DNA from: Stegostoma tigrinum
Lineage: Eukaryota
Direction of reading: 5' to 3'
NCBI RefSeq assembly: GCF_030684315.1
Contig: NC_081391.1
Location: 20,358,629-20,422,628, forward strand
Length of the DNA stretch: 64,000 nucleotides
Part shown: positions 13-63,155 of the stretch, in pieces
How positions within the stretch are numbered: the stretch's first letter is position 1
Layout of the letters: the number at the start of each line of letters is the position of its first letter
The notes under the pieces: generated by a model
What the model saw: the letters and a program-made list of their open reading frames with translations, nothing else
Database searches by the model: none
Told to the model about the DNA's origin: nothing
Program-made: the position numbers and the translations under genes

Positions 13-114
13 CATGGAGAGATAAACATAGGAAAAAGAAAGCACCAGGTTGATCTGCTTGTTAACAACACCCACACAGGCCTTGTGTTGGATCTGCCAC
101 ACTTGGGAGGGCAT
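13..114 (-). pseudogene. Exon 1 of a diverged ('D-type') ferritin copy; rest of gene lies left of the window
   Basis: 102-nt exon translating [34 protein letters not shown], followed by a GT donor. Ferroxidase E27 is replaced by V. Near-identical to exon 1 at 31874-31975. Confidence 0.85.
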
Positions 115-181
115 CTTCACTATTGCTGCTCACAATCACTTGAACAACTCTAGAACTAAGTCTCCCTACCACAAGCTCTTG

Positions 182-345
182 TATTTATACTCCTGGAAAA
201 CATCCTTCACCCAACCAGGAAATGTCATCACTAACAATGATTGGTTGTCAGAGATTGTCAATCAGGAATCTGCAAGAACCCAGGCACCAATGAACAAGGA
301 GAGGGGGTGTGGGGCAATGTGCTGAGACCCAGAGTCAACCAGAGA
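182..345 (-). promoter_or_regulatory. Ferritin proximal promoter (TATAAATA plus CCAAT-type boxes)
   Basis: TATAAATA at 182-189, 68 nt from the ATG, the same spacing as in the paralogues. ATTGG/CCAAT motifs lie upstream. Confidence 0.7.
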
Positions 346-1009
346 TTTGGGCAACAGTCAGGTTGAGATTATTATTCTGTGATAATGAGAGCACTTAGCC
401 TCTCAAGCCTGTTCCCCCATTCAACTGGATCAGTGCGAGTCTGTCTTTTCTTTGAATATCTTTGCCTGGGTTCTGCATCGCGTCATATTCTGAACTAACA
501 TAGCTCACCAAATCAGTTTTGAAATGTCCAAGGGGCTTGCAGAATGTTGGGAGTGATAATGTTATGTTTGAGATTAAGCATCATCACTGCTTACCATAGC
601 TTTGATCTGAAGATTATTCCCCCTTTTCCAGGATTATTTCGCCACAGGAAACAGTACATTGTCTAACGGCATGATTAGATCCATTAGGAATCCAAAGTAC
701 CTGGATAATGTTCGTTCTTGAGTCTTCCACAATCTTTCAAGGACAAGGCTAGTTGATGTAAACTGTATTCATAATGTAACCAGCTTGGGGCTGAGAAAAT
801 GCTGGTGAATCTGTGCTAAGGTTCCTCAAATAACCCTGTCAGAGCTCAGCACAGCGCTCCAAATGTGCTCTGATGCCACTTCTATGCTGTTGTATTACAA
901 CACATGCTGTTTTGTTGTCCAGCCGGCTTGGGGGAAAGTGAGCACGTTCTGGCCTTTTTAATTCGGCTTTCATATCTGCCCACTGCCACACGGTTATTAC
1001 GGTGCTGAT

Positions 1010-1605
1010 GGCGACCATTCAGCCCATCGTATCCACCACCAACTCGCTGAGCGTTTCACCTCTTGCCATTCTCCTGCACTGTCCCTGTAATCTCCATGTT
1101 ATTCCCTTCCAGATATCAGTCCTATTCCCTTTTGAATGCGTGAATTGAACCTGCCTCCAACACACTCTCGGACTATACATTTCACACCCTATCCACTCGC
1201 TGTGTTGGAAGGTTTTTATTTTTGCAGATCACTTCAGCTTCTTTTGCCAATTTTAAACCTGTGCCTTCTTGCTCCTGACCCTTTCACAAATGGGAACATC
1301 ATGCCACTGTTTGTTCTTTCTGGATCCGTATTTGCGCCGTTTGCTTTCCAGAGAGACAAGTCCCAGCCTATCCAATATATCCTCACACCTGAAATTCCTC
1401 ATTCCTGGAGCCATTCCAGGAAGCCTCCTCTGCACTCTCTCCAGTACGTCCACTCTTTCCTTCAGTGTGATGTGCAGAACGAGACACAGTATTCCTGTTG
1501 GAGTCAAACTTAAGCAGGTTCAGCATAATCACCTTGCTCTTGTACACTTGCCCCTACTAATAAAGCTCAGGGCACTGCGAGCTTTGTAAACGATTCTCTT
1601 AAACA
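1010..1605 (-). mobile_element. Degenerate CR1 LINE 3' fragment (continues at ~2990-3260 after a nested Penelope-like insertion)
   Basis: Minus-strand translation gives DVLERVQRRLPGMAPGM...LDRLGLVSLE, typical of the CR1 ORF2 C-terminus. A WQMKFN-like coding remnant lies near 3100-3140. Paralogous copies at ~13815-14412, ~32870-33468 and ~52070-52663. Confidence 0.75.
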
Positions 1606-1609
1606 GACC

Positions 1610-2985
1610 TCAGAGATAATGGGAACTGCAGGTGCTAGAGAATCTGAGATAACAAAGCGTTGAGCTGGATGAACACAGCAGGCCGAGCAGCATCTTAGGA
1701 GCACAAAAGATGACGTTTTGGGCCTAGACCCTTCATCAGAAAAGGGGGATGGGGAGGGAACTCTGAAATAAATAGGGAGAGGGGTAGGCGGACTGAAGAA
1801 GAATAGAGGAGAAGGTAGGTGGAGAGGAGAGTATGGGTGGGGAGGTAGGGAGGGGATAGGTCAGTCCGGGGAGGACGGACAGGTCAAAGGGGCCGGGTGA
1901 GGTTAAGAGGTAGGAAATTGAGGTGTGGCTTGAGGTAGCAGGAGGGTCTAGGTGAGAGGAAGAACAGGTTAGGGAGGCTGGGATGAGCTGGGCTGGTTTT
2001 GGGATGCAGTTGGGGAAGGGGAGATTTTGAAGCTGGTGAAATTCACATTGATACCATTGGGCTGCAGAGTTCCCAAGCGGAATATGAGTTGCTGTTCCTG
2101 CAACCTACGGGTGGCATCATTATGGCACTGCAGGAAGACCAGGATGGACATATTGTCTCAGGAACGGGAGGGGGAGTTGAAATGGTTCGCGACTGGGAGG
2201 TGCAGTTGTTTACTGCAAACTGAGCGTAGGTGTGCTGCAAAGTGGTCCCCAAACCTCTGCTGAGTTTCCCCAATGTAGAGGAAGCCATGCCGTGTACAGC
2301 AGATGCAGTATACCACATTGGCGGATGTGCAGGTGAACATCTGTTTGATGTGGAAAGTCATCTTGGGGCCTGGGATGGGGGTGAGGGAGGAGGTGTGGGG
2401 GGCAGGTGTAGCACTTCCTGCGTTGTAGCGGAAAGTGCTGGGTGTGGTGGGGTTGGACGGGAATGTGGAATGGATGAGCGTGGAGCGGACAAGGGAGTCG
2501 CGGAGAGAGAGTGGTCTCTCTGAAGGCAGACAATGATGGGGATGGAAAAATGTCTTTGGAAGTGGAGTTGGATTGTAGATGGTGGAAGTGTCGGAGGATG
2601 ATGATTTGTATCCAGAGGTTAGTGGGGTGGTATGTGAGGACGAGGGGGAATCCTCTTGGGGAAGTTATTGTGAGGGTGGTGTGTGAGGAAATAATTGCAG
2701 GAAATGCGGGAGACACGATTGAGGACATTCTCGCTCAAAACAAGGAGGAATTGGCAAGTGGCAGTCTTGGAAGAACGAAGACATTTGGGATGTGCAGGAG
2801 TGGAATGCCTCTCCTTGGAGCAGAGGCAAAGGAATTGGGAATAGGGGATGGAGTTTTTACAGGAAGGTGGGTTGGAGGAGGTGTATTCCAGGTAGCTGGG
2901 GGAAGTCGGTGGGCTCGAAATGGACATTGGTTTGTCGGTGGTTGCCTGCGATGGAGACAGGAAGGTGAGGAATGTGTTGGAGGTG
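1610..2985 (-). mobile_element. Penelope-like element (GIY-YIG endonuclease region plus 3' end with mutated hammerhead motif), 5'-truncated
   Basis: ORF fragments [37 protein letters not shown] and EQQLIFRLGTLQPNGINV match the PLE GIY-YIG domain. Frameshifted. Hammerhead core at 1712-1739 has GAAA changed to AAAA. Confidence 0.85.
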
Positions 2986-4393
2986 GCCCTTCCACGATGT
3001 AATGCAATTACACCATGCAGTTCACTCACTCCTGCACCCTCTTTAGAAATGCACCTTTTATTTTGTATTATCTCTACCTGCTTTTCCCACCATTTTTTCT
3101 GCTTTGAACTTCATCTGCCACTTGCGTGCCCATTCCACCAATATGTCTGTGCTCTTGTGAGGTTCTACACCATGGCCGTCACGCTAAGTTTCTTATCATG
3201 TACAAAGTATGAAATTGCATCTTTTATACCAAGGTCTAAGTCATTAGTTTGCTTTTGAAAAAGCCTGGTTCCTCCCCCTAACCCGTGGAACTCCACTACA
3301 AACCATCCCCCCCTCGTCCAGAGAGCATCCATTAGCAGCACTTCTGTTTCTAGTAATGAGTAACTCGTCAAAGTGACGAGCATCTACTCCTTCACTTGTC
3401 CCATTTGGAAAGTGAATGAAAAGCTGATGCAAAAGGACAATGCATCTAGAAGTTGTAGCCTCTCAGTGTTCATAATGTATTGAACCTACTAATTTCCAAT
3501 TTTGAAACTAGTCCTCAAGCAAACTTAAGAAATCTACTCCCCACCCAAGTCCCCTAACCTGCCATTTCTAAATGGATGCTGTATATGTTGCTTGGCTTCT
3601 ATTCAAGCAGAGCTTCAGAATGTTGGAGCTGAAAAAAGTTCACAAACAGGACCTCTCCTCCTCAGCAATTTCTGAACCCTGTTCCCCTGCTGAGAGCTTC
3701 ACTTCAGACAAACAAGAGGAAAAGAAGTGACCCAAACAATGATTGGCTGCTGTGCATATAAAAGCTATTGGGAGGTATGGAAGGGTAGGAAGTAAGAAGT
3801 AATGAGGAATCAGGTGGGGGTGGGGGCGTTGAAGAAGAAAGGCAGAAAAGCTTGGATTCCAACTCTGATTCCTTGAAATCATCCATCTGCTAAACCTCAG
3901 GGCCCAAAATTAAAAACAAAACAAATCCACAAGCTGCAGATGGGAAGGTGTGGGACAGCCCTTACAGTCTGCAAACTTAGAAAGAGTTTACTGACCCTTA
4001 CTGCTGTTGGAAAAAGGGTAGAGGAAGCACCTAGTGTCTAGTGTCATCCAGAGAAGAAAGTCCTAGCACTAAGTGGTACACACCTGGAAGGCTAATGTAA
4101 CACTAAAAGCAAACACCTCATGTACATTTTCATATGGCAAATTTGTATGTTCCATATGTGCACACAATTTAAGCTACCTTTGGAAGAAGCTATAGAAGTG
4201 AGTGAAATTTCCATTGTGGATTTTTTCAGTCAAGTTTCCTGGTTAGCTGTTGGTAATTTAGGTAGTTTTAAAACAAAGATCCAAAATCCAGTTCCACAAA
4301 TACTTGTATTTCCATTTGGAATGGCAGACAGAAAAAGGCAAAGTGTTTGTCAGAATTAGGTCACAAATGGACCAGTTTCTTCTATAACCCCAT

Positions 4394-6580
4394 TCAGCTG
4401 AGTGTGAGCTTGTCAAACAGGTACTCTCCCACACCATTGTCAGGGGCTCCCAGTCTCTTCAGGTTGGTGATGTGATCTCCCAGCTTCTTGATCATCTTCA
4501 CTTGCTCATCCAAGTAGTGCCTCTCCAGGAAGTCACACAGCTGGAGAAAGAAAAGAAATGAGTAGCTCACTAAACAGAAAGCATCTTGGTACTTCAAATG
4601 CTCTGTGCTATGTGAATAGGTACATTTAACCTCAAGGACCAATGCTTGATCACCTTCAGACAAAAAAAAGGAGAGAGATTGTGAAGTACTCACATGAGGG
4701 TCCTTGTGGCCAGAGGCGAGTTTGTGCAGATCCAGCAGACTCTGGTTCACATCCTTCTCCATCTGCAGAGCTCTCTGCATTGCCTCCAGACCATTGCCCC
4801 ACTCATCCTGCTCTGGCTTCTGGAAGAAGGGTTTTGTTAGTCAGAAGCTGCTATGGGCTTCTGTACTAGAACTAAAGGCTGTGCCTTTCAAGGCTAAAAA
4901 AGGCTTGAACCACATGTTGCAGATTGCCACCCTCCACTTTTGGAGAGAGGGGGGGGGCATAACCTGCCACATCTTAAACATAAAAGAAATTCGGAATCAA
5001 TGCACATGTGATGTTAGTGCTGGAGCTTAAGTGCCTGATGCAGCGTTTGAAGTCAGTCGCTCCCCCATACAAATGGGGAATTGTTGGAGTCAGTGAAGTA
5101 CTAGACTATCCTACTGCCTAGTCAGTTCCAGCTGCAAATAAGGGAATGCAAAGCAAAATGTTGCATTGCCCTAAGTGACTCCGGCCCGGATGTTTCCAAT
5201 GGTCAATCGTTTAAGACCACCAGGATGATAGTGAAAAATCACTGGGCACTACAGTTGAATGAAACCTCAAACTCCTTTGCCATTTGAGCATTTTAGAATT
5301 CAATTAAATTCCTAAACACCACCCTATCCATGTGGATGGAAACCTTGGTTAAGAAACCAAGCAGGTTTCTTAAAACCATGAATTTAAGTCAAGTACAGGT
5401 CATACAGAGGAGTGCTCATCTCAATCAATTGTTTCTGATCACTCCACGAGCTCCATTGGATTAGAAAAAGCCAACAAAAACATTTCAGCCCATGCACTTG
5501 AACAGGTGCAGAATCAAGATACAGGCTATCCAAAACAGGCTTCTGTCAAAGTAAACCCTCAAGCTTTCCCCTTTTAAATTAAACAGGGGGGTTAAAAGCC
5601 CAACCTTGATGTCCTGCAGGAGGACTCGGCCTCCACGTTTATTCTGGAATGCCATCAGTTTCGCAGCATGTTCCCGTTCCTCATGGGACTGCTCCTTGAA
5701 GAACTCAGCAAAGTGTCGCAGGGCAACATCGTCCCTGTCAAAGTGAGAGAGCTGTGGAGGGAAGGATTGGACAGGAATCAATTAAAGTAGACCCAGAAAT
5801 TCTAAAAGCCAAGGGCTTGGTTACTCATTCTCTACCTGGCTTCAAGTTAGAGACTTGGAATTTCAGTCAAATATATTGGCCTCAGCTAGTTTGAAATCTA
5901 GTCATTTCTGACCACATGCAACCCCCATCCTTGTGTTTGGGGGATCATGTTAGGAAATAGTAGATGTTAAGAGGCCAGAGACAGCAGTAATTTTTGCCTT
6001 AGCATTCCACTTACTCTACTTAATGCCACAAAGACTTGCTTCCCTCACTCATCAGGGAGGTGGTACAGAAGAACCATCTGAACAGCCCAGCATTGACTCC
6101 TCACATGGATTAGTGATGTCAGTTCAGGTAAGAAAGATCTAGTCAGTTTTGGGGGCAGTGAAAACAAGATTGATCAGCTAGTTTCTCACCCCAAGACAGC
6201 CTCAACATTCAGTTTTACCATTAGAGTAAGGAATTAGATTGCTCATGTGGACTAGAATAATTCTTGTTGTCAAACCCACAGACACCTCAGATTTAGCCAG
6301 TTTAAAAGAACACGACAATGACAAGTTAGACAACAGACTTGTATCACAATTTACTTGGCAGGGGAGGCAGAGATTAGAATTAACCCTTAAATTACAGGTC
6401 ACTAACACCAGAACTTGTTGCTCAGAATAGTGAATTATTAATAACTTTGAAAAAGTACCCAGAAGATACAGCACTCACCATGGAGAGGTAAACATAGGAG
6501 GAATAGAGCTCCAGGTTGATCTGCTTGTTAACAGCATCCTCACAGTCCTTGTGGTAGTTCTGACACACTTGGGAAGCCAT
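4394..6580 (-). CDS. Ferritin heavy/middle-subunit-like gene, intact, 173 aa (copy A1)
   Basis: Exons 6479-6580, 5605-5751, 4694-4819, 4394-4540, all GT-AG and phase 0. Protein [62 protein letters not shown].../[26 protein letters not shown].../[27 protein letters not shown]...KLTLS*. Ferroxidase residues retained. Confidence 0.95.
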
Positions 6581-6647
6581 TGTCACTATTCCTGCTCACT
6601 ATCACGTAAACAAGTCTCATACTAAGCCTCAGTACCATATGCTCTAG

Positions 6648-6815
6648 TATTTATACTCCTGGGACATCCTATGTTCAACGAGGGAATGACATCACCAATG
6701 ATGACTGACATTCCCTGAAAGCCAATTAGGAATCTCCCATGAATTTAGCCCCGCCTCTGCCCTCCCACCAATTAGAGAGAGGGTGTGGGTGTATGAGGCA
6801 GAGCTGATCAGAGGT
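6648..6815 (-). promoter_or_regulatory. Promoter of ferritin A1: TATA box, CCAAT array, TGACATCA, NF-kB-like site
   Basis: TATAAATA 6648-6655; TGACATCA 6687-6694; CCAAT at 6695, 6722 and 6768; GGGAGATTCC on the minus strand at 6729-6738. Nearly identical blocks at 24626-24790 and 45496-45660. Confidence 0.75.
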
Positions 6816-7079
6816 GCAGATTGTTGTCAAGTCTGGATGGTTATTCTGTGATTGGATCAGCAGTCGGTCATTTAGAATCTCCAATCTGCTGGAACTCTCT
6901 ATCGGGTCATGGTTAGTTTGAAAAAAAAACTAGATTTGGATTTGGAAAGCTTTTCTTTCTAAGCTTGTTGTGACCAACTGCAAGAGGTGCTCAATGAAGG
7001 AGAATCAGTTTCTGCTGGGATCTTGGAGAGAAAGGTAGGAGATTGGTGGTAGTTCCTAGAAATTTGAAACAGAAACAAA

Positions 7080-7860
7080 CAGGACAAAGACAGGAAGGAT
7101 GTTTCTGATGACCAATGTGCCCAGAACCAAGGGTCGCTGTCTAAGGATATAGAGTAGTCTGTTTGGGATTGAGATGAGGAGAAATGTCTTCAGCCAGACA
7201 GTGGGGTGTCTGTTGTATTGTCTGGGACAGGAAACAGTTGAAGCTAAAATACTGAAGGTTTTGAAGAGTTAGATGTAGCTGATAGGGCTATGGGGATCAA
7301 AGGGTATGGAGAGAGAGTGTGAAGAAGGTACTGAGTTAAGGGATTACCCATGATCATATGGGATGTCAGAGCAGGCTGGAAGGGCTGTATCAAAATGGTT
7401 CATAATTTTGAACATTTCAATCAGGTGATCTTTTAATCTTCTCTGCTCCAAGGAGATAAGGCCAATTTTTAAAATCTTTCCTGGTATCATTCCAGCAAAT
7501 CTCCTTTGCACCGTGTCCAGGGCTTTAATGCCGTCCCGTAGAAACAGTGCCCAGAATTGAACACAATACTCTAATGCGGTCTGACCAATGGTGTGTAGTG
7601 GTGTAGCGTTACTTCTTTGCTTTTATACTCTCGGGCTCTCCTTAAAAACACAAGATTCCTATAAGCATTCTTCATGACTGTTTCATCTTGCCTGGCCACC
7701 TTCAGGGAATTGTAGTTTTAAATCCTGAGGGCTCTCTGCTCCTGTACTCACCTTGACGTTGTTCCATTGAACCTGTATTATCTCTTCATGTCTCCATGTT
7801 TCTTCGACCAAAATGCATTTCTTGCATTTTTTTGTGTTGAAATTATAAAGTGATTGCCAA
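7080..7860. mobile_element. Two old CR1 fragments (plus-strand 3' end ~7080-7390; minus-strand ORF2 piece ~7420-7860)
   Basis: The plus-strand piece resembles the 3' end of the young CR1 at 26690-27000. The minus-strand piece has an LEYCVQFW-like coding remnant near 7545-7575. Paralogues at ~25060-25830 and ~45940-46700. Confidence 0.65.
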
Positions 7861-7924
7861 CATCAAATCTTACCCAATAAAAATCAAATGATCCTAATTT
7901 TGAAGTCTTCAACTGACACCCCAC

Positions 7925-7943
7925 GTGTGTGTGTGTGTTTTTA

Positions 7944-7976
<33 letters not shown>

Positions 7977-7978
7977 GT
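7925..7978 (+). repeat. Interrupted (TG)n microsatellite
   Basis: Directly visible. Much shorter at the paralogous sites near 25925 and 46785. Confidence 0.95.
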
Positions 7979-8919
7979 CCACTATCCACTATCCCTTCTG
8001 TGAAGAAGCTGTTTCTGACATTATCCTGGACAGTTTAGCACTAATTTGAAGATTCTATTTCCATTCCAGACCCTACGTCCTAGATGACCCATTGAGATGA
8101 AACAATTCCTCTCAAGCTACCCTGTCAAATCCACGAATGCTCTTAAAACTTTCAATTACCGCCATCTCTTAACCTTCCATACTGAGGGACTCGGGCAAGC
8201 TGCCATCATCATTTAACCAGCTCTTTATCTCTGAGTTGATTCTGGAAATTCCCTGCTGCACCATCTTCAGGCCCAATCTGCCGAAAATGAGATCTCCAGA
8301 GGTGGTTGAACCAGAATGTGACAATTTCACAAAAAAACCTCCACCCAGGGGTGTTCAAATCCCTTTGAGATCAGGACTGACATTGAATTATTTTCTTTGT
8401 TCAGTGTTTTTATATCTCGTCACTAGTTTCAATACATTTTTGTCCACTTGTCTCAGTTTCATTTTGATCATTAGTTTTGACAACCCAGCAGAAGATGTTC
8501 CCATTTCTAAAATACTCTGGCTCATCTTTCTTGGTCAGAAGTGGATAACTTCACACTTCCCCTTATTGAACTGTATCAGCCAGTCTTCCCAACTCCATGG
8601 AAGTTTGAAACATTCTCCTGCCATGATAAAGTGCCACTTGATGTAATGCCATCAGCAAATATTTGAATTGAGGCAGTCCATTTCTTCATCTGTAACATTT
8701 ATAATCCAAGGAAAAGTTAAGGCCCCAGCTTCGCTCCTTGGGGAAAGTAATCACATCTTGCTTTTTCTTTTATTACCTCATGGGGTGAACGTTTTGTTGG
8801 CTGGCCCACTTCCCTAATTATTATTGTCTTCTTGAATTGCTGTTGTCCATTTGGTGCAGGGAGATCCATAATGCCATTTTGGACAGAATTCCAGGATTCA
8901 GATGGTATGACTGTAGATT

Positions 8920-9140
8920 GAGTTTTGCCTCATGAGCTTCATTGAGTATTTTGAAGAAGTGATGAAGAGCAATGATGAGGGCAGAGTGGTGGGAGTGATC
9001 TACATGGGCTGTAATGAAGCGTTTGACAATGTTGCTCACAGTAAGCTGTTTAGCAAAGTGAGATCACATGGAATCCAGGGAGAATTATCCATTTGGATAC
9101 AGAAATGGCTCAAAGGTGGAAGGCACAGGGTGCCGGTAGA
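8920..9140 (+). mobile_element. CR1 reverse transcriptase fragment
   Basis: IEYFEEVMK..DEGRVVGVIYM..NEAFDNVAHSKLFSKVRSHGIQGELSIWIQKWL..RHRV matches the CR1 RT region around DFSKAFDKVPH. Paralogues at ~27966-28188 and ~47750-47970. Confidence 0.8.
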
Positions 9141-9142
9141 GG

Positions 9143-9990
9143 CAACAAAGTGTGGAGCTGGAGGAACACAGCAGCCCAGGCAGCATCAGAGGAGCAGAAA
9201 AGCTGATGTTTCGGGTTGAGACCCTTGAGAAACTGGGAGGGGGAAGGGGAAGCTCAGAAATAAAGAGGAGGGGTGGGACTGGGAAGGTAGATGGGATGGT
9301 GATGGGTGAGTGCAGATCGGGAGTGGTCAGTGAGGTGGGAAAAGAAGATGTACATGAACAGGTCAAGGAGTTGGGGATTGGTCATGGGATTAGGAGACTT
9401 GAGGTTAATAAGGTTCACATTTAGTGTCTTGGGCTGTAAGCTCCCAAGGCAGAATGAGGTGCTACTCCTCCAGTTTGCGAATGACATTGGTGTGATACTG
9501 GAGGATACCCAAGGTGGACAGGTCAGCCATGGATTGGTAGGGGGGGAAAAGAAGTTAAAACGTTTTGCGATTGGAAAATATTGTTTGTTGCTCATTGAGC
9601 ACAGATGCTCTTGAAAAACTGTCTCCCTCATGGTGGCTACATTGGGTGCAGCCGATACAATAGACCAACTTCAAACAGGTGCAGGTGATCTGTGTCTGAT
9701 GCCGAAGGTTTGTTTGTTTTTGTTCTGAATGGAGACACGGGCTGGATGTGGTGGTGGGGCGCCGAGGGTGTCAGGGAATGGTTTAGCTGTTCCTGCAGTT
9801 GCAGGGAACAGGGCTGGGGTTAATGGGGAGTACAGAGTGGATGAGGGAGTGGCAGGGATACAAGCGTAGAGGTACTGGGGTGTCCACAGTAAGAGGGGCT
9901 ATGCCTGCTTCTGTGGGATATGTGGAACAGTCCCTCTTCTGCTGCTACACTGGCATTATCCCCTGCCTGTTCCTTACTCAAAGATTAACA
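9143..9990 (-). mobile_element. Older Penelope-like element with an inverted RT fragment at its 5' end
   Basis: Minus strand: degenerate GIY-YIG C-terminus (FCLGSLQPKTLNV) and a decayed hammerhead 3' end near 9200-9230. Plus strand ~9895-9990: VGYVEQSLF..YTG.IP.LFL, which is PLE RT sequence just before YIDD. Paralogues at ~28189-29060 and ~47972-48820. Confidence 0.7.
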
Positions 9991-10148
9991 GTAAATAGCC
10001 AGCTACATTGCTGTGTGGGTGGTGAGTCAGCTGTCGGCCAACTGCTTTCCTTCCCTGAAAGGGTGAAAAAAGTTTAGAACTGTTGACAGTTGGCCTTTCT
10101 GCAAATTGAGTGAAGTGTCTCTGCTACTCTGACCCACCCCCCCACTGA

Positions 10149-10213
10149 AGCCTCGAGGCAATGAAGGGAACTCTGCAGATAAAGAAGGTGAACCAGAGGC
10201 TCCTGGATCTCCT
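10149..10213 (+). pseudogene. Plus-strand relic of ferritin exon 3
   Basis: GAGGCAATGAAGGGAACTCTGCAGATAAAGAAGGTGAACCAGAGGCTCCTGGATCTC aligns to exon 3 ([20 protein letters not shown]). Better preserved copy at 29259-29327. Confidence 0.7.
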
Positions 10214-11145
10214 TCTCTGCAAATGTAGCTTTAATTGCACCAGCTGTCCTCAGCAGTTGATTGCTGGAGCAAGAACAGGGACTATGCCACATTTGTCCCA
10301 CACGCTACAAGGTGGGCATTGAGGATAGGACACACTGTTACAGGAGAGAGCAGATTCCTCACACAGTCTCCTACAGTAGAGACTTGTTAGAAAATCCAAT
10401 TCCTTAGCTTGGGAAACTAGAACAGTGGTGTATTGCTTGCTCAAAGAAGCATGGAACAAAAGCAACCTGCATGCCAGATGCTATTGCTGTTACAGTCTTA
10501 AGGAATATTTTGAATGCTTAGATTCTACCAGTAAAGTTAACAGAAGATTACTGGCAAAACTGAGGCCTGGCAGTACCTGGGGACAGACTTCAGTTGTGGA
10601 GTCGCCAGACTCAAACATTAACTGGTTTAATCAACACACATCCAGAGTTCCACCTGCACCTATCCCGCCACTCCCCAACCCCAATTTTTATTTTGTATGA
10701 ACCCAGCTTTTCGGAAAGTTGGAGTATTGCTAGGGAGAGGGCACCAGTTAAGTGGCTAACAGTTAGACAGAGTGGAGCAATTTTGGTCAAGCTATTCGCG
10801 AGAGACTACTCTTACAGAATTGTCACAGTGAGGACAAGACAGATAGTGAGCATTGCGAACAAGCCAAAAGCTTAACAGTTGTGATTTCCACAACAATTAC
10901 TCACTTCAAAAATTCTTCTGACTCTGGATTCAGAAACTGAACAAAAATTGCCAGGGCAAGCATCGATTCAATGCAGAGAGCAAAAAGCCGAAGGGATTTA
11001 ATAATCAGATAATAAACAGCCAAATAAATGAAGCAGTCACTCAAAGTCGTCAGATACATGGGCAATGTTTTCATTGACTTTTTTGTGCACTCTGCACTTG
11101 CACTAGAACACCAGTGTACATGAAATGGAGTTGTTGAATCCCCAT

Positions 11146-12920
11146 TCAGCTCAGGCTGAGCCTGTCGAACAGATACTCTCCTTTGCCCTTCTGAGGGGCT
11201 CCCAGTCTCTTCAGGTTGGTGATGTGATCTCCCAGCTTCTTGATCATCTTCACTTGCTCATCCAAGTAGTGCCTCTCCAGGAAGTCGCACAGCTGGAAGA
11301 CAAGACAAGTTAGTTGAGTCCATTGAAGACATATGGAAGTGACCCTTAATTCAGATTTAACAAATCACCACCATGTTGAGGGAGAGGGGCACTCTGGTGA
11401 TGCGTTTGGACTGTTGTAGATTTAACAGTCTGCAGGAGGCAGTTATGAGATAATTGTATTCCCCCTCCCCCCAGGAGCAGACAAACAGATCACTTTCAGG
11501 TTGGAAACATTCATCTTTCCTGTAATTTGAAAGTCATCCTGGTAGTTTGTTGCTCTAAAGGCCATCAGCCCTACATGCTGAATTTAGCAGTGAAAGGCCA
11601 GGGAGCTTCTTGGAGAGAAAGTGAGGAACTCACATGAGGGTCTGTGTGGCCAGAGGAGAGTTTGTGCAGATCCAGCAGACTCCGGTTCACATCCTTCTCC
11701 ATCTGCTGAGCTCCCTGCATTTCCTCCAGACCATTGCCATGGTCAGCCTTCTGAAGTGGCAGCGTGGGGGTGGATGGTAAGAGACAAGACACATCACTTA
11801 AAACGCAAGAAACCAGTGAAAAAAGCAACAAGATCTCCATCCCATTAAGAGAGTGTACAACAGCTAAGAGATTATATCCAAAGCATTAAAATGAAATACT
11901 GTTCTAGGCTTAAAGAGGTCTTCATCAGGACAAGATCACATTCCATTAAAACCAACCTTGATGTCCTACAGGAGGACCCAGCACCCACATTCATTCTGGA
12001 ATGCCATCAGTTTCTCAGCATGTTCCCATTCCTTCAAGGAGTAGTCCCATGAGAACTCAGCAAAGTGACACAGGCAACATCTTCCCAGTAAAAGTAAAAG
12101 GATTGTAAACAGGGAAGCCCATTGGGGTTTGCTGTTGAAGATCCTTCTCTACTTGAAATGCTTCTTCAGTCAGGCCTGCAGGTTCTGGAAGGGAAATCCT
12201 CCCTTGTAAATCACAACAAAAACAACACCAGAATATGTGGAGGTTCTTTCCTTGTAAAGCAGGAAGGAAGGGAAACAAGCATCTTCCTACAAGTTGCGGG
12301 GGGGGGCGTGAATATTTCATACTTGACTCCAAATATTAAGCATTAAATGACACCTCATCATTCTGAAAGTCCATATGGTTAAGTGAAAATGGCTCAGCTT
12401 CAGTGAGGAAACCTTCCAACACAGAACAGAGTTCCCCACTCTGAAGTGAACTTACAAAGCTTACTAGTAAAGTATTGACAGCAAATAGACCCAGAGATTG
12501 AGAGTGTTCCTCCCTCTGGGATTGGAGGTCTAGGGTCACATATGTTCTAGAAGTAAGAGATCAGGTCTCTGGGCAAATTGACTTACTCTAACTATTCAAT
12601 AGAATAAATCCAATTACATTGAACAAAAAGAAAAACAAACAGACTTCTCAGGTCATACATCAAGATCAAACCATTGAAAGATTATTCACTTCTCAAGGTC
12701 AGGGGAAGGCCACAGAAGATTCTAACATGAATTGAATGATGCAGAGAGATCCTACACCCACAATACAAGGAGACCACAGCTTTAAATCTGAAATAAATCC
12801 AGAGAACACCACAATCACCATGGAGAGATAAACACAGGAAAAAGAAAGCACCAGGTTGATCTGCTTGTTAACAACACCCTCACAGTCCTTGTGGTAGCTC
12901 TGATGCACCTGGGAGGCCAT
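11146..12920 (-). pseudogene. Ferritin D-type copy D1, probable pseudogene (exon 2 destroyed)
   Basis: Exon 1 12819-12920 is open with E27V. The exon 2 remnant (~11957-12102) has an in-frame TAG at 11966-11968, indels and no AG acceptor. Exon 3 11634-11750 has a 9-nt in-frame deletion. Exon 4 11146-11292 is intact. TATA at 12988-12995. Confidence 0.88.
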
Positions 12921-22423: not shown

Positions 22424-24558
<2,135 letters not shown>

Positions 24559-42619: not shown

Positions 42620-45428
<2,809 letters not shown>

Positions 45429-48981: not shown

Positions 48982-49045
48982 AGCCTCGAGGCAATGAAGG
49001 GAACTCTGCAGATAAAGAAGGTGAACCAGAGGCTCCTGGATCTTC
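48982..49045 (+). pseudogene. Plus-strand relic of ferritin exon 3
   Basis: Duplicate of 10149-10213. Confidence 0.7.
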
Positions 49046-49978
49046 TTCTCTGCAAATGTAGCTTCAATTGCACCAGCTGTCCTCAGCAGTTGATTGCTGG
49101 AGCAAGAACAGGGACTATGCCACATTTGTCCCACATGCTACAAGGTGGGCATTGAGGATAGGAGACACTGTTACAGGAGAGAGCAGATTCCTCACACAGT
49201 CTCCGACAGTAGAGACTTGTTAGAAAATCCAATTCCTTAGCTTGGGAAACTAGAACAGTGGTGTATTGCTTGCTCAAAGAAGCATGGAACAAAAGCAACC
49301 TGCATGCCAGATGCTATTGCTGTTACAGTCTCAAGGAATATTTTTAATGCTTAGATTCTACCAGTAAAGTTAACAGAAGATTACTGGCAAAACTGAGGCC
49401 TGGCAGTACCTGGGGACAGACTTCAGTTGTGGAGTCACCAGACTCAAACATTAACTGATTAAATCAACACACATCCAGAGTTCCACCTGCACCTATCCCA
49501 CCACTCCCCAACCCCAATTTTTATTTTGTATGAACCCAGCTTTTAGGAAAGTTGGAGTATTGCTCGGGAGAGGGCACCAGTTAAGTGGCTAACAGTCAGA
49601 CAGAGTGGAGCAATTTTGGTGAAGCTATTCACTGGAGACTACTCTTACAGAATTGTCACAGTGAGGACAAGACAGATAGTGAGCATTGCGAACAAGCCAA
49701 AAGCTTAACAGTTGTGATTTCCACAACAATTACTCACTTCAAAAATTCTTCTGTCTCTGGATTCAGAAACTGAACAAAAATTGCCAGGGCAAGCATCGAT
49801 TCAATGCAGAGAGCAAAAAGCCGAAGGGATTTAATAATCAGATAATAAACAGCCAAATAAATGAAGCAGTCACTCAAAGTCGTCAGATACATGGGCAATG
49901 TTTTCATTGACTTTTTTGTGCACTCTGCACTTGCACTAGAACACCAGTGTACATGAAATGGAGTTGCTGAATCCCCAT

Positions 49979-51171
49979 TCAGCTCAGGCTGAGCGTGTCA
50001 AACAGATACTCTCCTTTGCCCTTCTGAGGGGCTCCCAGTCTCTTCAGGTTGGTGATGTGATCTCCCAGCTTCTTGATCATCTTCACTTGCTCATCCAAGT
50101 AGTGCCTCTCCAGGAAGTCGCACAGCTGGAAGACAAGACAAGTTAGTTGAGTCCATTGAAGACATATGGAAGTGACCCTTAATTCAGATTTAACAAATCA
50201 CCACCATGTTGAGGGAGAGGGGCACTCTGGTGATGCGTTTGGACTGTTGTAGATTTAACAGTCTGCAGGAGGCAGTTATGAGATAATTGTATTCCCCCTC
50301 CCCCCAGGAGTAGACAAACAGATTACTTTCAGGTTGGAAACATTCATCTTTCCTGTAATTTCAAAGTCATCCTGGTAGTTTGTTGCTCTAAAGGCCATCA
50401 GCCCTACATGCTGAATTTAGCAGTGAAAGGCCAGGGAGCTTCTTGGAGAGAAAGTGAGGAACTCACATGAGGGTCTGTGTGGCCAGAGGAGAGTTTGTGC
50501 AGATCCAGCAGACTCCGGTTCACATCCTTCTCCATCTGCTGAGCTCCCTGCATTTCCTCCAGACCATTGCCATGGTCAGGCTTCTGAAGCGGCAGCGTGG
50601 GGCTGGATGGCAAGAGACAAGACATCACTTAAAACGCAAGAAACCAGTGAAAAAAGCAACAAGACCTCCATCCCATTAAGAGAGTGTACAACAGCTAAGA
50701 GATTATATCCAAAGCATTAAAATGAAATAATATTCTCGGCTTAAAGAAGTCTTCATCAGGACAAGATCACATTCCATTAAACCCAACCTTGATGTCCTAC
50801 AGGAGGACCCAGCACCCACATTCATTCTGGAATGCCATCAGTTTGTCAGCATGTTCCCATTCCTTCAAGGAGTAGTCCCATGAGAACTCAAACAGACCTC
50901 AGGTCATACATCAGGATCAAACCATTGAAAGATTATTCACTTCTCAAGGTCAGGGGAAGGCCACAGAAGATTCTAACATGAATTGAATGATGCAGAGAGA
51001 TGCTACACCCACAATACAAGGAGGCCACAGCTTTAAATCTGAAATAAATCCAGAGAACATCACAATCACCATGGAGAGATAAACATAGGAAAAAGAAAGC
51101 ACCAGGTTGATCTGCTTGTTAACAACACCCACACAGTCCTTGTGGTAGCTCTGATGCACCTGGGAGGCCAT
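49979..51171 (-). pseudogene. Ferritin D-type copy D3, probable pseudogene (exon 2 partly deleted)
   Basis: Exon 1 51070-51171 is open with E27V. A ~580-bp deletion removes much of intron 1 and the 5' part of exon 2 (remnant 50788-50890, with TAG). Exon 3 50467-50583 and exon 4 49979-50125 are open. TATA 51239-51246. Confidence 0.88.
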
Positions 51172-52666: not shown

Positions 52667-54037
52667 TCAGAGATAATGGGAACTGCAGGTGCTGGAGAAT
52701 CTGAGATAACAAAGTGTAGAGCTGGATGAACACCGCAGGCCAAGCAGCATCTTAGGCGCACAAAAGCTGATGTTTCGGGCCAAGACCCTTCATCAGAAAA
52801 GGGGGATGGGGAGAGGATTCTGAAATAAATAGGGAGAGAGGGGTAGGCAGACTGAAGATGGATCGAGGAGAAGGTAGGTGGAGAGGAGAGTATGGGTGGG
52901 GAGCTAGAGAGGGATAGGTCAGTCCGGGGAGGACGGACAGGTCAAAGGGGCGGGATGAGGTTACTTGGTAGAAAATGGAGGTGTGGCTTGAGGTTGGAAG
53001 AGGGGCTAGGTGAGAGGAAGAACAGGTTAGGGAGGCTGGGATGAGCTGGGCTGGTTTTGGGATGCAGTGGGGTGAGGGGAGTTTTTGAAGCTGGTGGAAT
53101 CCACATTGATACCATTGGGCTGCAGGGTTCCCAAGTGAAATATGAGTTGCTGTTCCTGCAACCTATGGGTGGCATCGGTCTGGCACTGCAGGAGGACCAG
53201 GATGGTCATGTTGTCTCAGGAATGGGAGGGGGAGTTGAAATGGTTCGCGACTGGGAGGTGCAGTTGTTTTTTGCAAATCGAGCGGACGTGTTCTGCTAAG
53301 CCATCCCCAAGCCTTCGCTTCGTTTCCCCAATGTAGAGGAAGCCACACTGTGTATGGCAGATACAGTATACCACATTGGCGGATGTGCAGGTGAACATCT
53401 GCTTGATATGGAAAGTCATCTTGGGGCCTGGGATGGGGGCGAGGGAAGAGGTGAGGGGGCAGGAGTCGCACTTCCTGCGATTGTAGCGGAAAGTGCTGGG
53501 TGTGGTGGTGTTGGACGGGATGTGGAGCGGACAAGGGAGTCACGGAGAGGGTGGTCTCTCCAGAAGGCAGACAAGGGTGGGGATGCAAAAATGTCTTGGT
53601 GGTGGGGGTCTAATTGTAGATGGCAGAAATGTCGGAGGATGATGTGTTGAATCTTGAGGTTGGTCGGGTGATACGCAAGGACTAGGGGAATTCTCTTGGG
53701 GAAGTTATCGCGAGGGTGGTGTATGAGGGATGAGTTGCGGGAAACACAATTGAGGACATTCTTGCCCACTGCAAAGGGGAAGTGGGAAGTGGCGGTCCTG
53801 TAAGAACGAGGACATCTGGGATGTGCAGGAGTGGAATGCCTCTCCTTAGCGCAGATGGGGGGGAAGAGGCAAAGGAATTGGGAATAGGGGATGGAGTTTT
53901 TGCAGAAGTTGGGTTGGAGGAGGCGTATTCCAGGTAGCTGTGGGAGTCCGAGGTCTCGAACTGGACATCGGTTTATAGGTGGTTGCCTGTGCTGGAAACA
54001 GAAGGTCCAGGAAGGTGAGGGATGTGTTGGAGATGGT
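52667..54037 (-). mobile_element. Penelope-like element nested in CR1
   Basis: ORF fragment [29 protein letters not shown]. Hammerhead core at 52769-52796 has an AUC triplet. Confidence 0.85.
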
Positions 54038-55446
54038 CCTTCCACCTTCAATTGTGTAATGCAATTACACCATGCAGTTCACTCACTCCTGGACCCTCCT
54101 TAGAAATGCACCTTTTATTTTGTATTGTCTCTACATGCTTTTCCCACCATTTTTTCCTGCTTTGAACTTCATCTGCCACTTGTTTGCCAATTCCACCAAT
54201 ATGTCTGTGACCTTTTGAGGTTCTACACCATGGTCCTCACGTTAAGTTTCTTATCATGTACAAATTCTGAAATTGCATCTTCTGTACCAACGTCTAAGTC
54301 ATTCATTTACTTTTGAAAAAGTCTGGCTCCTCCCCCTAACCCATGGAACTCCACTACAAACCATCCCCCTCGTTCAAAGAGCATCCATTTGCCATCACTT
54401 ATGTTTCCAGTAATGCAGCCAACTCCCTATCCCTGTCACTGCAGTGCCGTTCATTACCGGGGCTTTAACATTGTTCACAAATCTACAGCGTGGCACTGCA
54501 TTACATGTCTTTAGGAAGCCCACGTAGACCCCACACACAACAGCCCTCTCACCTAACTCTTCAAAATACTTGTGCTAGATACTTAAGTGATTTTCCTTTT
54601 GAGGAGATCTGGCCTGGCATGGATCTCCTGAACATTCACATCTGTCCTTGTAACTATTACACAATTTTCTACTCTCATCTCCATTACTGCCTGCCTTCCA
54701 CTCCCCAGCATCACTCATGGAAATGACAGGCATCTACTCCTTCATTTATCCCTTTTAGAAACTGAATGAACAAAGCTAGTGCAAAAGGACAAGGCCTCTA
54801 GAAGTTGTAGCCTCAGTGTTCATAATTTATTGCACCTAGTAACTTCCAAATTCAAAACTATATCCTTAAGCAGATTGAAAAGGTACTCTCCCCACCTGAG
54901 TCCCCAAAACTGACATTTCCAAATACATGCTGGTTGTGCTGCTTGGCTTCTATTTGAGCAAAGCCAGTGCTTTGCTTTCAGAGCTTCACCATGTTGGAGC
55001 TGAAAAAGTTGACTTGGCCCTTGCTCCTGTTGGAAGAAGGGCAGAATAGGACAAAGGAAACACCTAGTGTCAAATGCCTTCTAGAGATGAAAGGCATGTC
55101 ATGAAGTGGTACACACCTGGAAAGCAAATGTAACACTAAACAGAAAGGGGCAACACCTCATTTACAAGTCCCTTACATTTTTACCATGGAAAATTCACAT
55201 GTTCTATATGCACATAAAATTTATGCTAACTTTGTAGGAAGATATAGAAGTGAGTGAAATTTCTATTGTGGATTTTTTCAGTCAAGTTTCCTGGTTAGCT
55301 GTTGGTAATTCAGGTAGTTTAAAACACAAGAATCCAAAATCCAGTACCACAAATACTTGTATTTCCATTTGGCATGACAGACAGAAGAAGGCAAAGTGTT
55401 TGTCAGAACTAGGTCACTAATGGACCAATTTCTTCTATAACCCCAC

Positions 55447-55946
<500 letters not shown>

Positions 55947-56553: not shown

Positions 56554-56604
56554 CCTGACAATGGCATGGGAGAGTACCTGTTTGACAGGCTCACCATGAG
56601 CTGA
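56554..56604 (+). pseudogene. Orphan 3' end of ferritin exon 4 at an inversion breakpoint
   Basis: Translates [16 protein letters not shown], followed by the same 3' flank as gene E and AATAAA near 56685. Confidence 0.9.
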
Positions 56605-57387
56605 GTGGGATTTTAGAATCTCGTCAGTGCTGTAAATGGAGTTAATGTTTTAGAAACCTTCTCTATTCTCTCGGTGAATTTGCAAATAAAATCTCGGTAA
56701 TGAAGAAACACTTTTGTGTAATTGAATAACTGAATTTGTTCAGGTCAAAGATATTTAGGTGTATGGCAGGTGATTCTGTGACCTTTGACATTTTTGGATG
56801 TTAATCACCTCTGAGGTGGGGTTCAAATCTGACCAGGGATGCTGTCACGACACTACACACTTCTCTTTAACATGCTTTTGCAGTTCCTTATTTTAGTGGC
56901 TGCCAAACATCAGTGCTCTTTTTTCTTCCAAATTTGAGCTGAGAGTTTGCTGAAACTTTAAAAACCTGAAGAGATGGCTGTTGTATCATTGCAGTTTAAT
57001 ATTTGACAGTTTTGCATATCTACCATTCTTCTGTTTGACTAATATTTCTTTGGCAGTGAAATCTGCTCCCCTTACCTGATCTGGCCTACGTGTGACTCCA
57101 CAGCCTCAGCAATGCAGTTGGCTCTTATGCGAACTACCTTTGGCTGGCACTTGGTTAGAAAACATTTTTCCACAAGTTTTATACTGGGAGGTCTAATCTC
57201 ACATTTTACTTTCTGCCCTAAGCACTGGAAATTAACAGCTGACACAGCTCTGAGCTCATTACAAACAACTGTGCCCTACTGCCAAACATCAGGAAAGAAC
57301 TCATTATCCAAACAGCAGGTCTGTATGAAACTGAACAGCAATGGGAGTGATAGGATTCCGATAGAGGCATCCTGTCTGTTTCCCCAG

Positions 57388-60400: not shown

Positions 60401-60611
60401 GGCTCTGCTTTGTACATAGCTCCCCCCAGCACCTCTCCCTAATTAATGCCTGTATTCATGGGAGGCTGCTGATTGGAAATCCCTAATAGCCAAGCACTAT
60501 TGGTGATAACTTCCTGTTGGAATGCAGATTCCCATTCACATAAATACTAGAGCTCATGGGAGGTGGGGTTAGGCTGTTGTTTGAGTTTGCTTTTTGTAAG
60601 TAGGTGTGAAG

Positions 60612-60713
60612 ATGGTTTCCCAAGTGTGTCAGAACTACCACAAGGACTGTGAGGATGCTGTTAACAAGCAGATCAACCTGGAGCTCTATTCCTCCTATGT
60701 TTACCTCTCCATG
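60612..60713 (+). pseudogene. Extra upstream ferritin exon 1 with its own promoter
   Basis: Intact [34 protein letters not shown] with GTGAG donor; CATAAATA at 60539-60546. Confidence 0.88.
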
Positions 60714-61002
60714 GTGAGCTTTGTGGAATTGAAGCTTGTGCTATGATAGTGTTGACCATCCAGACCTGGCTCTCATCTCCACCTCTGATCAGCTCTGCTT
60801 AACACACCCTCCCCCTCTCTCTCATTGGTGCCTGTATGCAGGGGTTGTTCCTGATTGGCCACCAGCAACTGTCAGTCATCATCAGTTCTGCCTCTCTCTG
60901 TGTGACTGCAGGATGGTCCCAGGACTATAAATACAAGAGCCTGTGGGAGAGAGAGACTTAGTTCTAGAGTTTTCTTGGTGCTTGTGAGCAGGAATAGTGA
61001 AG

Positions 61003-63155
61003 ATGGTTTCCCAAGTGTGTCAGAACTACCACAAGGACTGTGAGGATGCTGTTAACAAACAGATCAACCTGGAGCTCTATTCCTCCTATGTTTACCTCTC
61101 CATGGTGAGTGCTGTATCTTTTGGGTACTTTTTTCAAAATTAGTAATAATTCACTATATGCTGAGCAAATAGTTCTAGTGTTAATGATCTGTAATTTTAA
61201 GATTTAATTCTAACTGCTGCCTCCCCTGCCAAGTACATCTTGATATAAGTCTGTGTTGTCTAATTTGTGACTGTCATGTTCTTTAAAATGGCTAAATTTG
61301 TGGGTTGGACAACAAGAATTATTCTATTCCATAGAAGCAATCTAATTCCTTACTTTAATGGTAAAACTGAATGTTGAGGTGAGAAACTGGCTGATCAATC
61401 TTGTTTTCACTGCCCCCAAAACTGACCAGATCTTCCTTACCTGAACTGACATTACTAATCCATGTGAAGAGTCAATGTTAGGCTGTTCAGATGGTTCTTC
61501 TGCACCCCTTCCCTGACTAGTGAGGGAAGCAAGTCTTTGTGGCATTAAGTAGAGTCAGTGGAATGCTAAGCAAAAAATTACTGCTGTGTCTGGACTGTTA
61601 CCATCTCATGTTTCTTAACATGATCCCCCAAATCCAAGGATGGGGTTTGCATGTGGTCAGACATGACTAGATTTCAAACTAGCTGAGGCCAATATATTTG
61701 ACTAAAATTCCAAGTCTCTAACTTGAAGCCAGGTAGAGAAGGAGTAACCAAGCCCTTGGCTTTTAGAATGTCTGGGTCTACTTTAATTGAATTCTGTCCA
61801 ATCCTCCTTCCACAGTTCTTTCTTTGACTGGGATGATGTTGCCCTGCATTACTTTGCTCAGTTCTTCAAGGAGCAGTCCCATGAGGAACGGGAACATGCT
61901 GAGAAACTGGCATTCCAGAATAAACGTGGAGGCTGAATCCTCCTGCAGGACATCAAGGTTGGACTTTTAACCCCTGTTTAATTTTCAAGGGGAAAGCTTG
62001 AGGGTTTACTTTGCAAGAAGCCTGTGCATTTTGATCAGCCTGTATCTTTGACTCTGCACCTGCTCAAGTGCATGGGCTGAAATGTTTTTGTTGGCTTTTT
62101 GTAATCCAGTGGAGCTTGTGGAATGATCAGAAACAATTGATTGAGATGAGCACTCCTTTGTATGACATGTACTTGACTTAAATTCATGGTTTTAGGACAC
62201 CTGCTGGGTTTTTAACCAAGGTTTCCATCCACATGGATAGGGTGGTGTTTAGGAATTTAATTGAATTCTAAAATGCTCAAATAGCAAAGGAATTTGACCC
62301 TTCATTGGACTGTAGTGCCTAGTGATATTTCACTATCATCCTGGTGGTCTTCAATGATTGACCATTGGAAACATCCAGGCTGGAGTCACTTAGGGGAATG
62401 CAACATGCTGTGTGGCATTTCCTTATTGGCACCTGCGACTGACTAGGAAGTAGAATAGTCTAGTAACTCTCTCTGACACCAGCAATTCCCCATCTGGATG
62501 GGGAAGCGACTGACTTCAAACGCTACATCAGGCACTTAAGCTCCCAGCACGAACATCACATGTGCCTTTTGCACTTTGATTCTGAATGTTTCTTATGTTA
62601 AGATGTGGCAGGTTATGCCCCTCTCAGCCACCGTCAACATTTGAATAGAACAATCTGCAACACCTCGATCAGGCCTTTGTAGCCTCAAAAGGCACTGCCT
62701 TCAGTTCTAGTACAAAAGCCCATAGCAGCTTCTGACGAACTAAACCCTTCTTCCAGAATCCAGAGCAGGATGAGTGGGGCAATGCAGAGAGCTCTGCAGA
62801 TGGAGAAGGATGTGAGCCAGAGTCTGCTGGATCTGCACAAACTCGACTCTGGCCACACGGACCCTCATGTGAGTACTTCACTTTTTTGTCTGAAGGTGAT
62901 AAGGCATTGGTTCTTCAGGTTAAATGTACCTATTCACCTAGCACTGAGCATTTGAAGTACAAAGCTGCTTTCTGCTCAGTGAGCTACTCGTTGCTTTGCT
63001 TTCTCCAGCTGTGTGACTTCCTGGAGAGGCACTACCTGGATGAGCAAGTGAAGATGATCAAGAAGCTGGGAGATCACATCACCAACCTGAAGAGACTGGG
63101 AGCCCCTGCCAATGGCATGGGAGAGTACCTGTTTGACAGGCTCTCACTCAGCTGA
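61003..63155 (+). pseudogene. Ferritin pseudogene G (A-type introns, plus strand)
   Basis: Exon 1 61003-61104 is intact (TATA 60926-60933). Exon 2 61816-61957 has a 2-nt frameshift, a 3-nt deletion and CGA-to-TGA at 61934-61936. Exon 3 62757-62868 has a 14-nt deletion. Exon 4 63009-63155 is intact; AATAAA at 63212-63217. Confidence 0.93.

Follow-up and report, generated by a model that had tools for sequence, protein, structure and literature searches.

The window considered here is a 64,000-nt stretch of DNA from the zebra shark, Stegostoma tigrinum (NCBI RefSeq assembly GCF_030684315.1, contig NC_081391.1, positions 20,358,629 to 20,422,628 of the forward strand), which contains a tandem array of ferritin genes. 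Genes were located by exon-by-exon BLAST over the whole window, the first gene supplying the query exons, followed by splicing by coordinates; this confirms the five intact 173-aa genes, six disabled or partial copies and orphan exons described in an earlier reading made from the sequence alone (the sequence-only reading). The intact genes all lie on the minus strand and have four exons and three introns each, the layout of H and L ferritin genes; in all five the exons measure 102, 147, 126 and 147 nt, the introns are of the GT-AG type and the coding sequence (CDS) of 522 nt gives an open reading frame (ORF) of 173 aa. A non-ferritin host gene was not found in the window.

4394-6580, minus strand: G1, intact ferritin gene; exons 6479-6580, 5605-5751, 4694-4819, 4394-4540
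17450-19683, minus strand: G2, intact ferritin gene; exons 19582-19683, 18624-18770, 18016-18141, 17450-17596
22424-24558, minus strand: G3, intact ferritin gene with Y29C; exons 24457-24558, 23410-23556, 22815-22940, 22424-22570
36253-38441, minus strand: G4, intact ferritin gene with R63W and a promoter type of its own; exons 38340-38441, 37475-37621, 36556-36681, 36253-36399
42620-45428, minus strand: G5, intact ferritin gene with E64K; exons 45327-45428, 43555-43701, 42923-43048, 42620-42766

The intact copies differ from one another at 12-31 of the 522 nt of CDS and at 11-20 of 173 aa. The protein of G5 is 100% identical to RefSeq XP_059496704.1 of S. tigrinum, which places the expansion in a shark as had been supposed; it contains the Ferritin domain PF00210 (Pfam, E=4.7e-37), and its AlphaFold2 model (mean pLDDT 89.9) features four long helices (11-38, 46-72, 93-120 and 124-154) and a short E helix (163-172). 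The window proteins begin at the ferritin fold and have no leader. In human H numbering, the offset of which was checked on PDB alignments, the ligand, channel and E57 residues listed by the sequence-only reading (E27, Y34, E57, E61, E62, H65, E107, D131, E134, Q141) are kept in all five genes; residues of G3 were taken from the translated protein and the list of variable codons, and those of G1, G2, G4 and G5 from a residue table. Intron 3 of G1 (153 nt; within 4394-4840) and of G4 (156 nt; within 36253-36702) is in frame and free of stops, and its retention would add 51-52 residues. The motif AATAAA lies 78 nt past the stop in G3 and G5; G1, G2, G4 and the partial copy PD (below) have only AATACA, at 83 nt.

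Disabled, partial and orphan copies

The six disabled or partial copies are accompanied by five orphan exon pieces (one exon 1, one exon-4 tail and three exon-3 fragments).

13-114, minus strand: psiB0, exon 1 only of the dead lineage, with E27V, the remainder presumably past the left edge (BLAST, splicing)
11146-12920, minus strand: psiB1, pseudogene with E27V, exon-2 acceptor AG>AA, a frameshift and stop in exon 2 and a shortened exon-3 start
30218-31975, minus strand: psiB2, pseudogene with lesions in common with psiB1, extra exon-2 indels and 2 nt lost at the start of exon 4
49979-51171, minus strand: psiB3, pseudogene of the psiB1/psiB2 lineage that has lost most of intron 1 as well as the 5' half of exon 2
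55447-55946, minus strand: PD, 5'-truncated copy with clean exons 3 and 4 only (BLAST)
61003-63155, plus strand: PI, inverted pseudogene; exon 2 with losses of 2 nt and 3 nt and a TGA, exon 3 with a 14-nt deletion
60612-60713, plus strand: orphan exon 1 together with some 200 nt of promoter of the G4 type, within an inverted duplicate of 38335-42670
56554-56604, plus strand: orphan piece of exon 4 (its 3' third), at the terminus of the inverted duplicate of 38335-42670
10152-10210, plus strand: exon-3 fragment of about 60 nt, travelling with the repeat unit (BLAST)
29262-29326, plus strand: exon-3 fragment at the homologous site in a second unit (BLAST)
48985-49043, plus strand: exon-3 fragment at the homologous site in a third unit (BLAST)

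The RefSeq model XP_059496705.1 maps at 100% to PD (55447-55946) and to 57090-57224; its upstream exons are non-ferritin. The four copies psiB0-psiB3 have E27V, D18G, A19V, Y29S and S30F in common, the shortened exon-3 start is common to psiB1, psiB2 and psiB3, and the exon-2 acceptor change is common to two of them; because of these shared lesions, four of the six dead copies are a single death copied four times, which leaves at most three independent deaths among the six. In psiB1 and psiB3, skipping of exon 2 leaves an open frame of about 121 aa that lacks helix B and carries E27V; ferritin models without exon 2 also occur in the annotation of other sharks. The array probably continues beyond the left edge of the window, as had been proposed, because the exon 1 at 13-114 has its donor at the edge and because block 1-6744 is a copy of 31862-38601, a stretch in which the gene body goes on.

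Turnover of the array

The exon 1 of the dead lineage recurs at 13, 12819, 31874 and 51070, giving units of 13-19 kb, and the youngest segmental duplicate occupies the left part of the window.

1-12059, no strand assigned: youngest segmental duplicate; 1-6744 corresponds to 31862-38601 (2.1% substitutions) and 6474-12059 to 45322-50890 (2.4%)

This duplicate lacks the 6.9 kb between exon 1 of G4 and exon 1 of G5, and its junction lies inside exon 1. The gene at the junction, G1, is a chimaera with a promoter of the G5 type (88-100% identity to G5 in 50-nt bins) and introns and 3' flank of the G4 type (introns 96-100% identical to those of G4), the switch again falling inside exon 1. Flanks change partner at exon 1 and at exon 4 elsewhere as well, with exon-4 swaps for PD and PI. 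Recombination anchored in exons thus joins promoters to other gene bodies as chimaeras and removes genes, and the window is a clean example of the process.

The exons are 94-98% identical among copies; most introns align like shuffled sequence. For the six pairs that match G1 or G4 with G2, G3 or G5, all three introns are shuffled-like, against only 2-8 differences at about 59 four-fold sites. When psiB1 and psiB3 are compared with an intact gene, nt 1-99 of exon 4 differ at one site, exon 1 at 14 of 102 (Fisher p=0.0007) and the rest of exon 4 at 11 of 48; selection is unable to explain the identity of the first 99 nt, as these copies are pseudogenes. Paralogs also group by species or order in a quick tree (Heptranchias, 98; orectolobiforms, 95), from which two partial or intron-retaining rows were left out. 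The unalignable introns between near-identical exons, the exon-4 patch in dead copies and the clustering by species or order show that exon-limited gene conversion acts alongside birth and death; exon homogeneity is strongest in exon 1 and in the first 99 nt of exon 4. The birth-and-death process put forward by the sequence-only reading is borne out as regards duplication, with 6 of 11 copies dead or partial; as a full account it is incomplete, given the strong homogenisation of exons and the small number of independent deaths.

Which ferritin

The deep placement of the array was taken from a 38-row careful tree and the grouping of paralogs from the quick tree. In the former, the FTH1 proteins of Amblyraja and Callorhinchus fall within the FTH1 clade (98/98) and the array clade (94/99) falls outside it; the grouping of the array clade with shark L-like and reptile L chains has weak support (81/84). 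FTH1 orthology is rejected, as a tree that forces the array together with chondrichthyan FTH1 has a p-AU of 0.031; the phylogeny thus sides with the earlier view that these are not H-chain orthologs. Forcing the array together with tetrapod M chains is not rejected (p-AU 0.53); the free tree does not recover that grouping and has no M clade with support. Zebra shark FTH1 is identical to the window proteins at 124-128 of 173 positions (72-74%); in the PDB, bullfrog M chains match best, aligned without gaps at E of about 1e-86, compared to 1e-82 for H. The window genes are therefore best read as a clade of ferroxidase-type paralogs specific to elasmobranchs, on the M/L side of the ferritins and apart from the single-locus FTH1; membership of the M chains is allowed, not established, and ferroxidase function of the H/M type is predicted from the ligands.

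The acidic nucleation face of M chains comprises the set E57/E60/E64. Position 60 is His in all five window proteins, as it also is in frog M, and E64 is present in four of five (G5 carries E64K). E57 was considered as an M marker and is ruled out, since it is also present in the true chondrichthyan FTH1 of Amblyraja and Callorhinchus; the inference of an M-chain-like design from E57 does not survive these comparisons. Met144 is a better mark of the family than E57, as it is found in 5/5 window genes and in 109/111 shark paralogs, where horse H has Ala. All five genes have E62, and the K62 of L-type ferroxidase loss is absent from them. The bullfrog M chain (PDB 1MFR) resembles the array in its ferroxidase ligands, its E57 and its ungapped alignment, and differs in D140, given as a residue of the ferroxidase centre in Table 1 of PMC10114856, where the array has Met144; the equivalent site is Ala or Thr in other M chains, so that frog D140 is not general to M. 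Vertebrate FTH1 shares with the array the seven ferroxidase-centre residues, D131/E134, H60 and four exons; it differs in that zebra shark FTH1 lies on another chromosome (a separate sequence of 64.4 Mb) and in that the array falls outside the FTH1 clade. The array differs from both bullfrog M and FTH1 in having no iron-responsive element (IRE), as described below. A separate low-copy chondrichthyan ferritin lineage (Heterodontus, Narcine; on the array chromosome in Heterodontus) could represent the parent of the array or else the canonical M gene of somatic tissues.

Promoter and translational control

A TATA box stands at -73 to -77 from the ATG in each of the 11 exon-1 copies. Each also has two or more CCAAT/ATTGG boxes within 300 nt, where about 0.43 would be expected per 150 nt, as illustrated by G1.

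6581-6730, minus strand: G1 proximal promoter; relative to the ATG, TATAAA at -75 and CCAAT/ATTGG boxes at -119 and -146; without an IRE loop

The 5' untranslated region (UTR) would be near 45 nt in length because the TATA box stands 73-77 nt ahead of the ATG. A shared oocyte E-box and a clear cytoplasmic polyadenylation element were looked for, and no consistent one was found. Vertebrate H and L messenger RNAs (mRNAs) are repressed at low iron through a 5' IRE (PMC11719527, the accessible text of which gives this background and nothing on M chains). An IRE was not found in the window by Rfam, with 0 matches at the gathering score and none among the five matches at E<=10; at these two thresholds Rfam shows no other credible RNA in the window either. 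None of the 24 loop-plus-stem hits across the window forms the canonical IRE hairpin of five stem pairs and a bulged C, and a hairpin scan of up to 2 kb upstream of the five intact genes returns a single weak four-pair match, 1.9 kb from G5. The lack of an IRE had escaped the sequence-only reading. If the genes have no IRE, translation would not be gated by cellular iron, and output would be set by transcription and copy number.

Extent of the family and earlier descriptions

The homolog search was evaluated on the best 120 of 551 matches, grouped in 90%-identity clusters with up to 15 members listed for each. Among the matches listed, elasmobranch clusters lead with 180, 138, 127, 69, 47 and 39 entries, and L-like clusters hold 76, 45 and 43; entries include isoforms and faulty gene models and are not gene counts. 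The listed members come from many shark genera and, within a species, mostly lie together on a single sequence; the family is present in galeomorph and squalomorph sharks, with batoid members too. Database ferritins named for bacteria that cluster with vertebrate ferritins look like contamination and were left out. In S. tigrinum, at least 35 distinct ferritins (hand count) are found on one sequence of 26,869,179 bp, at least 20 of the window type and at least 15 L-like; both clades thus share one sequence, while the window holds the ferroxidase-type clade only. The L-like family (K62 in 40/40, the full set of seven ligands in none) is amplified on the chromosomes that carry the array and may co-assemble with the window type.

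According to a preprint on the Greenland shark, this species has an ancient cluster, expressed in the ovary, of 155 'FTL' and 179 'FTH1' copies; the cluster is shared with the white shark and at least 250 My old, with RNA from the main cluster ovary-specific across the tissue panel of that species (bioRxiv 10.1101/2024.09.09.611499); as far as its accessible text goes, the preprint does not contain IRE, iron, gene conversion or pseudogene as whole words. The window resembles the Greenland and great white shark mega-clusters, large tandem clusters of two subunit types common to shark orders, as far as the preprint describes them. It differs in that the preprint labels copies FTH1, an orthology rejected by the tree of the window copies, and in that more than 85% of copies are full-length there, against 5/11 intact here. 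Further description of the shark array was not found beyond that preprint in the literature searched, the scope of which excluded subscription papers, later journal versions and supplements; ferritin is not mentioned in the main text of bioRxiv 2025.02.19.638963, bioRxiv 2025.06.08.657570, PMC8455134 or PMC11979771. The window is a slice of this ancient shark ferritin mega-cluster, and the expansion itself was already known; the claim that it is lineage-specific fails for the family and holds only for individual copies. New with respect to the literature searched are the non-FTH1 identity, the TATA promoter without an IRE, the exon-limited conversion, the recopied death, the finding that E57 is not diagnostic of M chains and the Met144 mark.

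Other members of the family show variants of their own. Batoid (skate, ray) members have lost some residues of the ferroxidase region and form much smaller clusters, and the copies of Hypanus and Hemitrygon are spread over several chromosomes. A small, well-supported shark clade (Heptranchias, Pristiophorus, Mustelus) carries about 30-50 additional N-terminal residues, basic and rich in Leu/Arg, which look like a mitochondrial presequence; in Heptranchias and Mustelus this clade is located on one sequence with array copies, and it could be an independent mitochondrial ferritin. Many RefSeq ferritin models of about 265 aa, from invertebrates too, have exons in the order 1-2-3-2-3-4, which may reflect annotation joins over tandem copies or back-splicing of exons 2-3; the ferritin exons of the window are all multiples of three.

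Function and alternatives

Sharks have large yolky eggs and a long development. The array genes combine intact ferroxidase ligands with a compact TATA/CCAAT promoter and the lack of an IRE. Their translation would be independent of cellular iron, with output adjusted through transcription and copy number. If the pattern of another shark applies, the ovary would turn the battery on, most likely in its growing oocytes, and ferritin and iron would be stocked for a large, yolky egg and a lengthy embryonic period. Selection would then act on the summed output of the family, such that single copies drift and die. Overall, the array is probably an iron-independent ovarian ferritin battery for egg provisioning, in turnover by duplication and exon-anchored recombination. 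The ovarian role is proposed because of the Greenland shark expression, the missing IRE and the abundance of ferritin mRNA in teleost ovary and eggs, as stated in the accessible text of PMC2262088 and PMC1488847. A further step, which we put forward tentatively, is a dedicated maternal iron-provisioning system of two co-amplified non-FTH1 families (the Met144 ferroxidase type and the K62 L-like type), free of IREs, driven by an oocyte TATA/CCAAT promoter and kept uniform for >250 My by exon-limited conversion.

Several points weigh against the ovarian battery. The IRE scans were made without a positive control, and a non-coding first exon may lie at a distance, outside the window. The expression evidence comes from the Greenland shark only, and the copies of that species are equated with the window clade by analogy. 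The placement on the M side is the weakly supported grouping (81/84) given above. The first 33 codons of exon 4 are highly conserved as protein, so that the conversion test loses force for live genes but keeps it for dead ones. The pooled pN/pS of 0.60 (39 nonsynonymous and 17 synonymous alleles) rejects an omega of 0.2 (p=7e-5) and is not significantly different from neutrality (p=0.056); G1 and G4 differ by 11 nonsynonymous changes to 1 synonymous, and some intact copies may be functionless. Lastly, the shark ovary is enclosed by the lymphomyeloid epigonal organ, according to the accessible text of PMC5568229, and 'ovary' RNA therefore need not be oocyte RNA.

The last point opens the way to an immune or haematopoietic role, in which the battery is expressed by epigonal leukocytes, withholding iron from pathogens or serving haematopoiesis, and the ovary signal is contamination. 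Expression without an IRE would suit a ferritin driven by inflammation; the reported ovary specificity of the Greenland cluster over a tissue panel speaks against it, as does the ferritin mRNA of teleost ovary and eggs, which have no epigonal organ, and this role is considered rather unlikely.

The array may instead be mostly neutral, with a few working copies and the rest passengers of a duplication-prone region kept readable by conversion, a view that is partly compatible with the egg-provisioning battery. It draws on the 6/11 dead copies, the pooled pN/pS not significantly below 1, the fourfold duplication of one dead copy and the divergence of G1 and G4, which at 12/522 in coding sequence is similar to that of their introns (about 2-3%). 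Pairwise omega ranges from 0.22 to 2.9. Positive selection from the G1-G4 pair (omega 2.9) is ruled out, as 11 nonsynonymous changes of 12 are expected under neutrality (P=0.25). Among shark proteins (162 of 168-182 aa among the first 260 fetched, with 11 that fit neither clade filter dropped), all seven ligands are kept in 94/111 paralogs across orders. Ligand conservation was rejected as a proof of selection because ligand sites are only marginally above random sites (p=0.09, 111 shark paralogs); retention of the ligands in the five intact genes is thus as described by the sequence-only reading, and is weak evidence of selection on each copy. A mostly neutral array nevertheless seems unlikely: the seven ligands and Met144 persist at the frequencies given over shark orders, omega is 0.22-0.31 in three of the four G2 pairs, promoter boxes stand at fixed positions in all copies, and large arrays persist in many lineages. 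The data fit selection on total family output with redundant single copies, of which some intact ones may be idle.

A general antioxidant dosage system, broadly expressed, limiting reactive oxygen species (ROS) and perhaps linked to longevity, is modelled on fthl27 of the hadal snailfish, the tandem copies of which are reported to be high in most tissues and to lower ROS in 293T cells (PMC10746142, in the part accessible). Like the array, fthl27 is a tandem dosage expansion of a ferritin paralog, and the ferroxidase ligands of the window genes are intact; fthl27 differs in having 14 copies compared to 3 in a relative and in its broad expression, the shark array being far older, larger and reportedly ovarian. 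As the array is common to shallow- and deep-water, small and large sharks, the sole expression report is ovary-specific, and a separate FTH1 is available for housekeeping, this system is quite improbable.

The weakest alternative is that copy number is inflated by uncollapsed haplotypes or misjoins, which is hardly credible even though assembling tandem arrays is difficult and some copies turn up again on small scaffolds without a placement. Of 12 duplicated blocks of at least 1.5 kb, the closest two differ by 2.1% and 2.4% substitutions and the rest by 4.7-10.4%. Divergence of 2.1-2.4% exceeds the allelic level expected from shark heterozygosity. Individual copies carry private transposon insertions, and similar ferritin arrays are present in independent shark assemblies. 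The array is real, and is neither an allelic nor a haplotype artefact, because of the distance between the closest blocks and the similar arrays of other assemblies.

Implications

Ferritin in vertebrates, encoded by few genes, is the textbook example of translation gated by iron. If the ovarian reading is true, a hundred-copy, IRE-free and probably ovarian battery would amount to a second mode of regulation, governed by copy number, and the iron supply of long-developing shark embryos becomes testable. If the maternal provisioning system is true as well, it would be a protein-coding counterpart of oocyte-type 5S RNA arrays, and ferritin would be a major storage protein of a vertebrate egg. 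The copies should not be taken for FTH1 expansions tied to longevity or ferroptosis because they are a different paralog, common to many sharks. Snail yolk ferritin is a secreted protein, in contrast to the leaderless window proteins. The yolk ferritins of Schistosoma and snails are likened to the array because they are deposited in eggs (PMC1488847, accessible text), and differ in being invertebrate genes; Schistosoma ferritin mRNAs are without IREs according to a title cited in the same paper.

Retroelements and repeats

43730-44543, plus strand: GIY-YIG retroelement piece in intron 1 of G5; Pfam GIY-YIG E=5.6e-4, below the curated cut-off
25898-27023, plus strand: LINE reverse-transcriptase fragment upstream of G3; Pfam RVT_1 E=1.2e-11

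The GIY-YIG piece, which we take to be Penelope-like, is flanked by a 13-bp direct repeat, and the homologous intron of G3 is without the insertion; the LINE fragment is not present in the homologous upstream regions of G1 and G5. Four other repeat ORFs were compared to Pfam, two giving no match and two weak retroelement matches, and Tandem Repeats Finder reports only a GT run and a 39-bp unit within a retroelement. A degraded GIY-YIG retroelement lies upstream of each copy of the dead lineage (at about 1660-3100, 14450-15800, 33520-34970 and 52700-54080) and has been duplicated with the unit.

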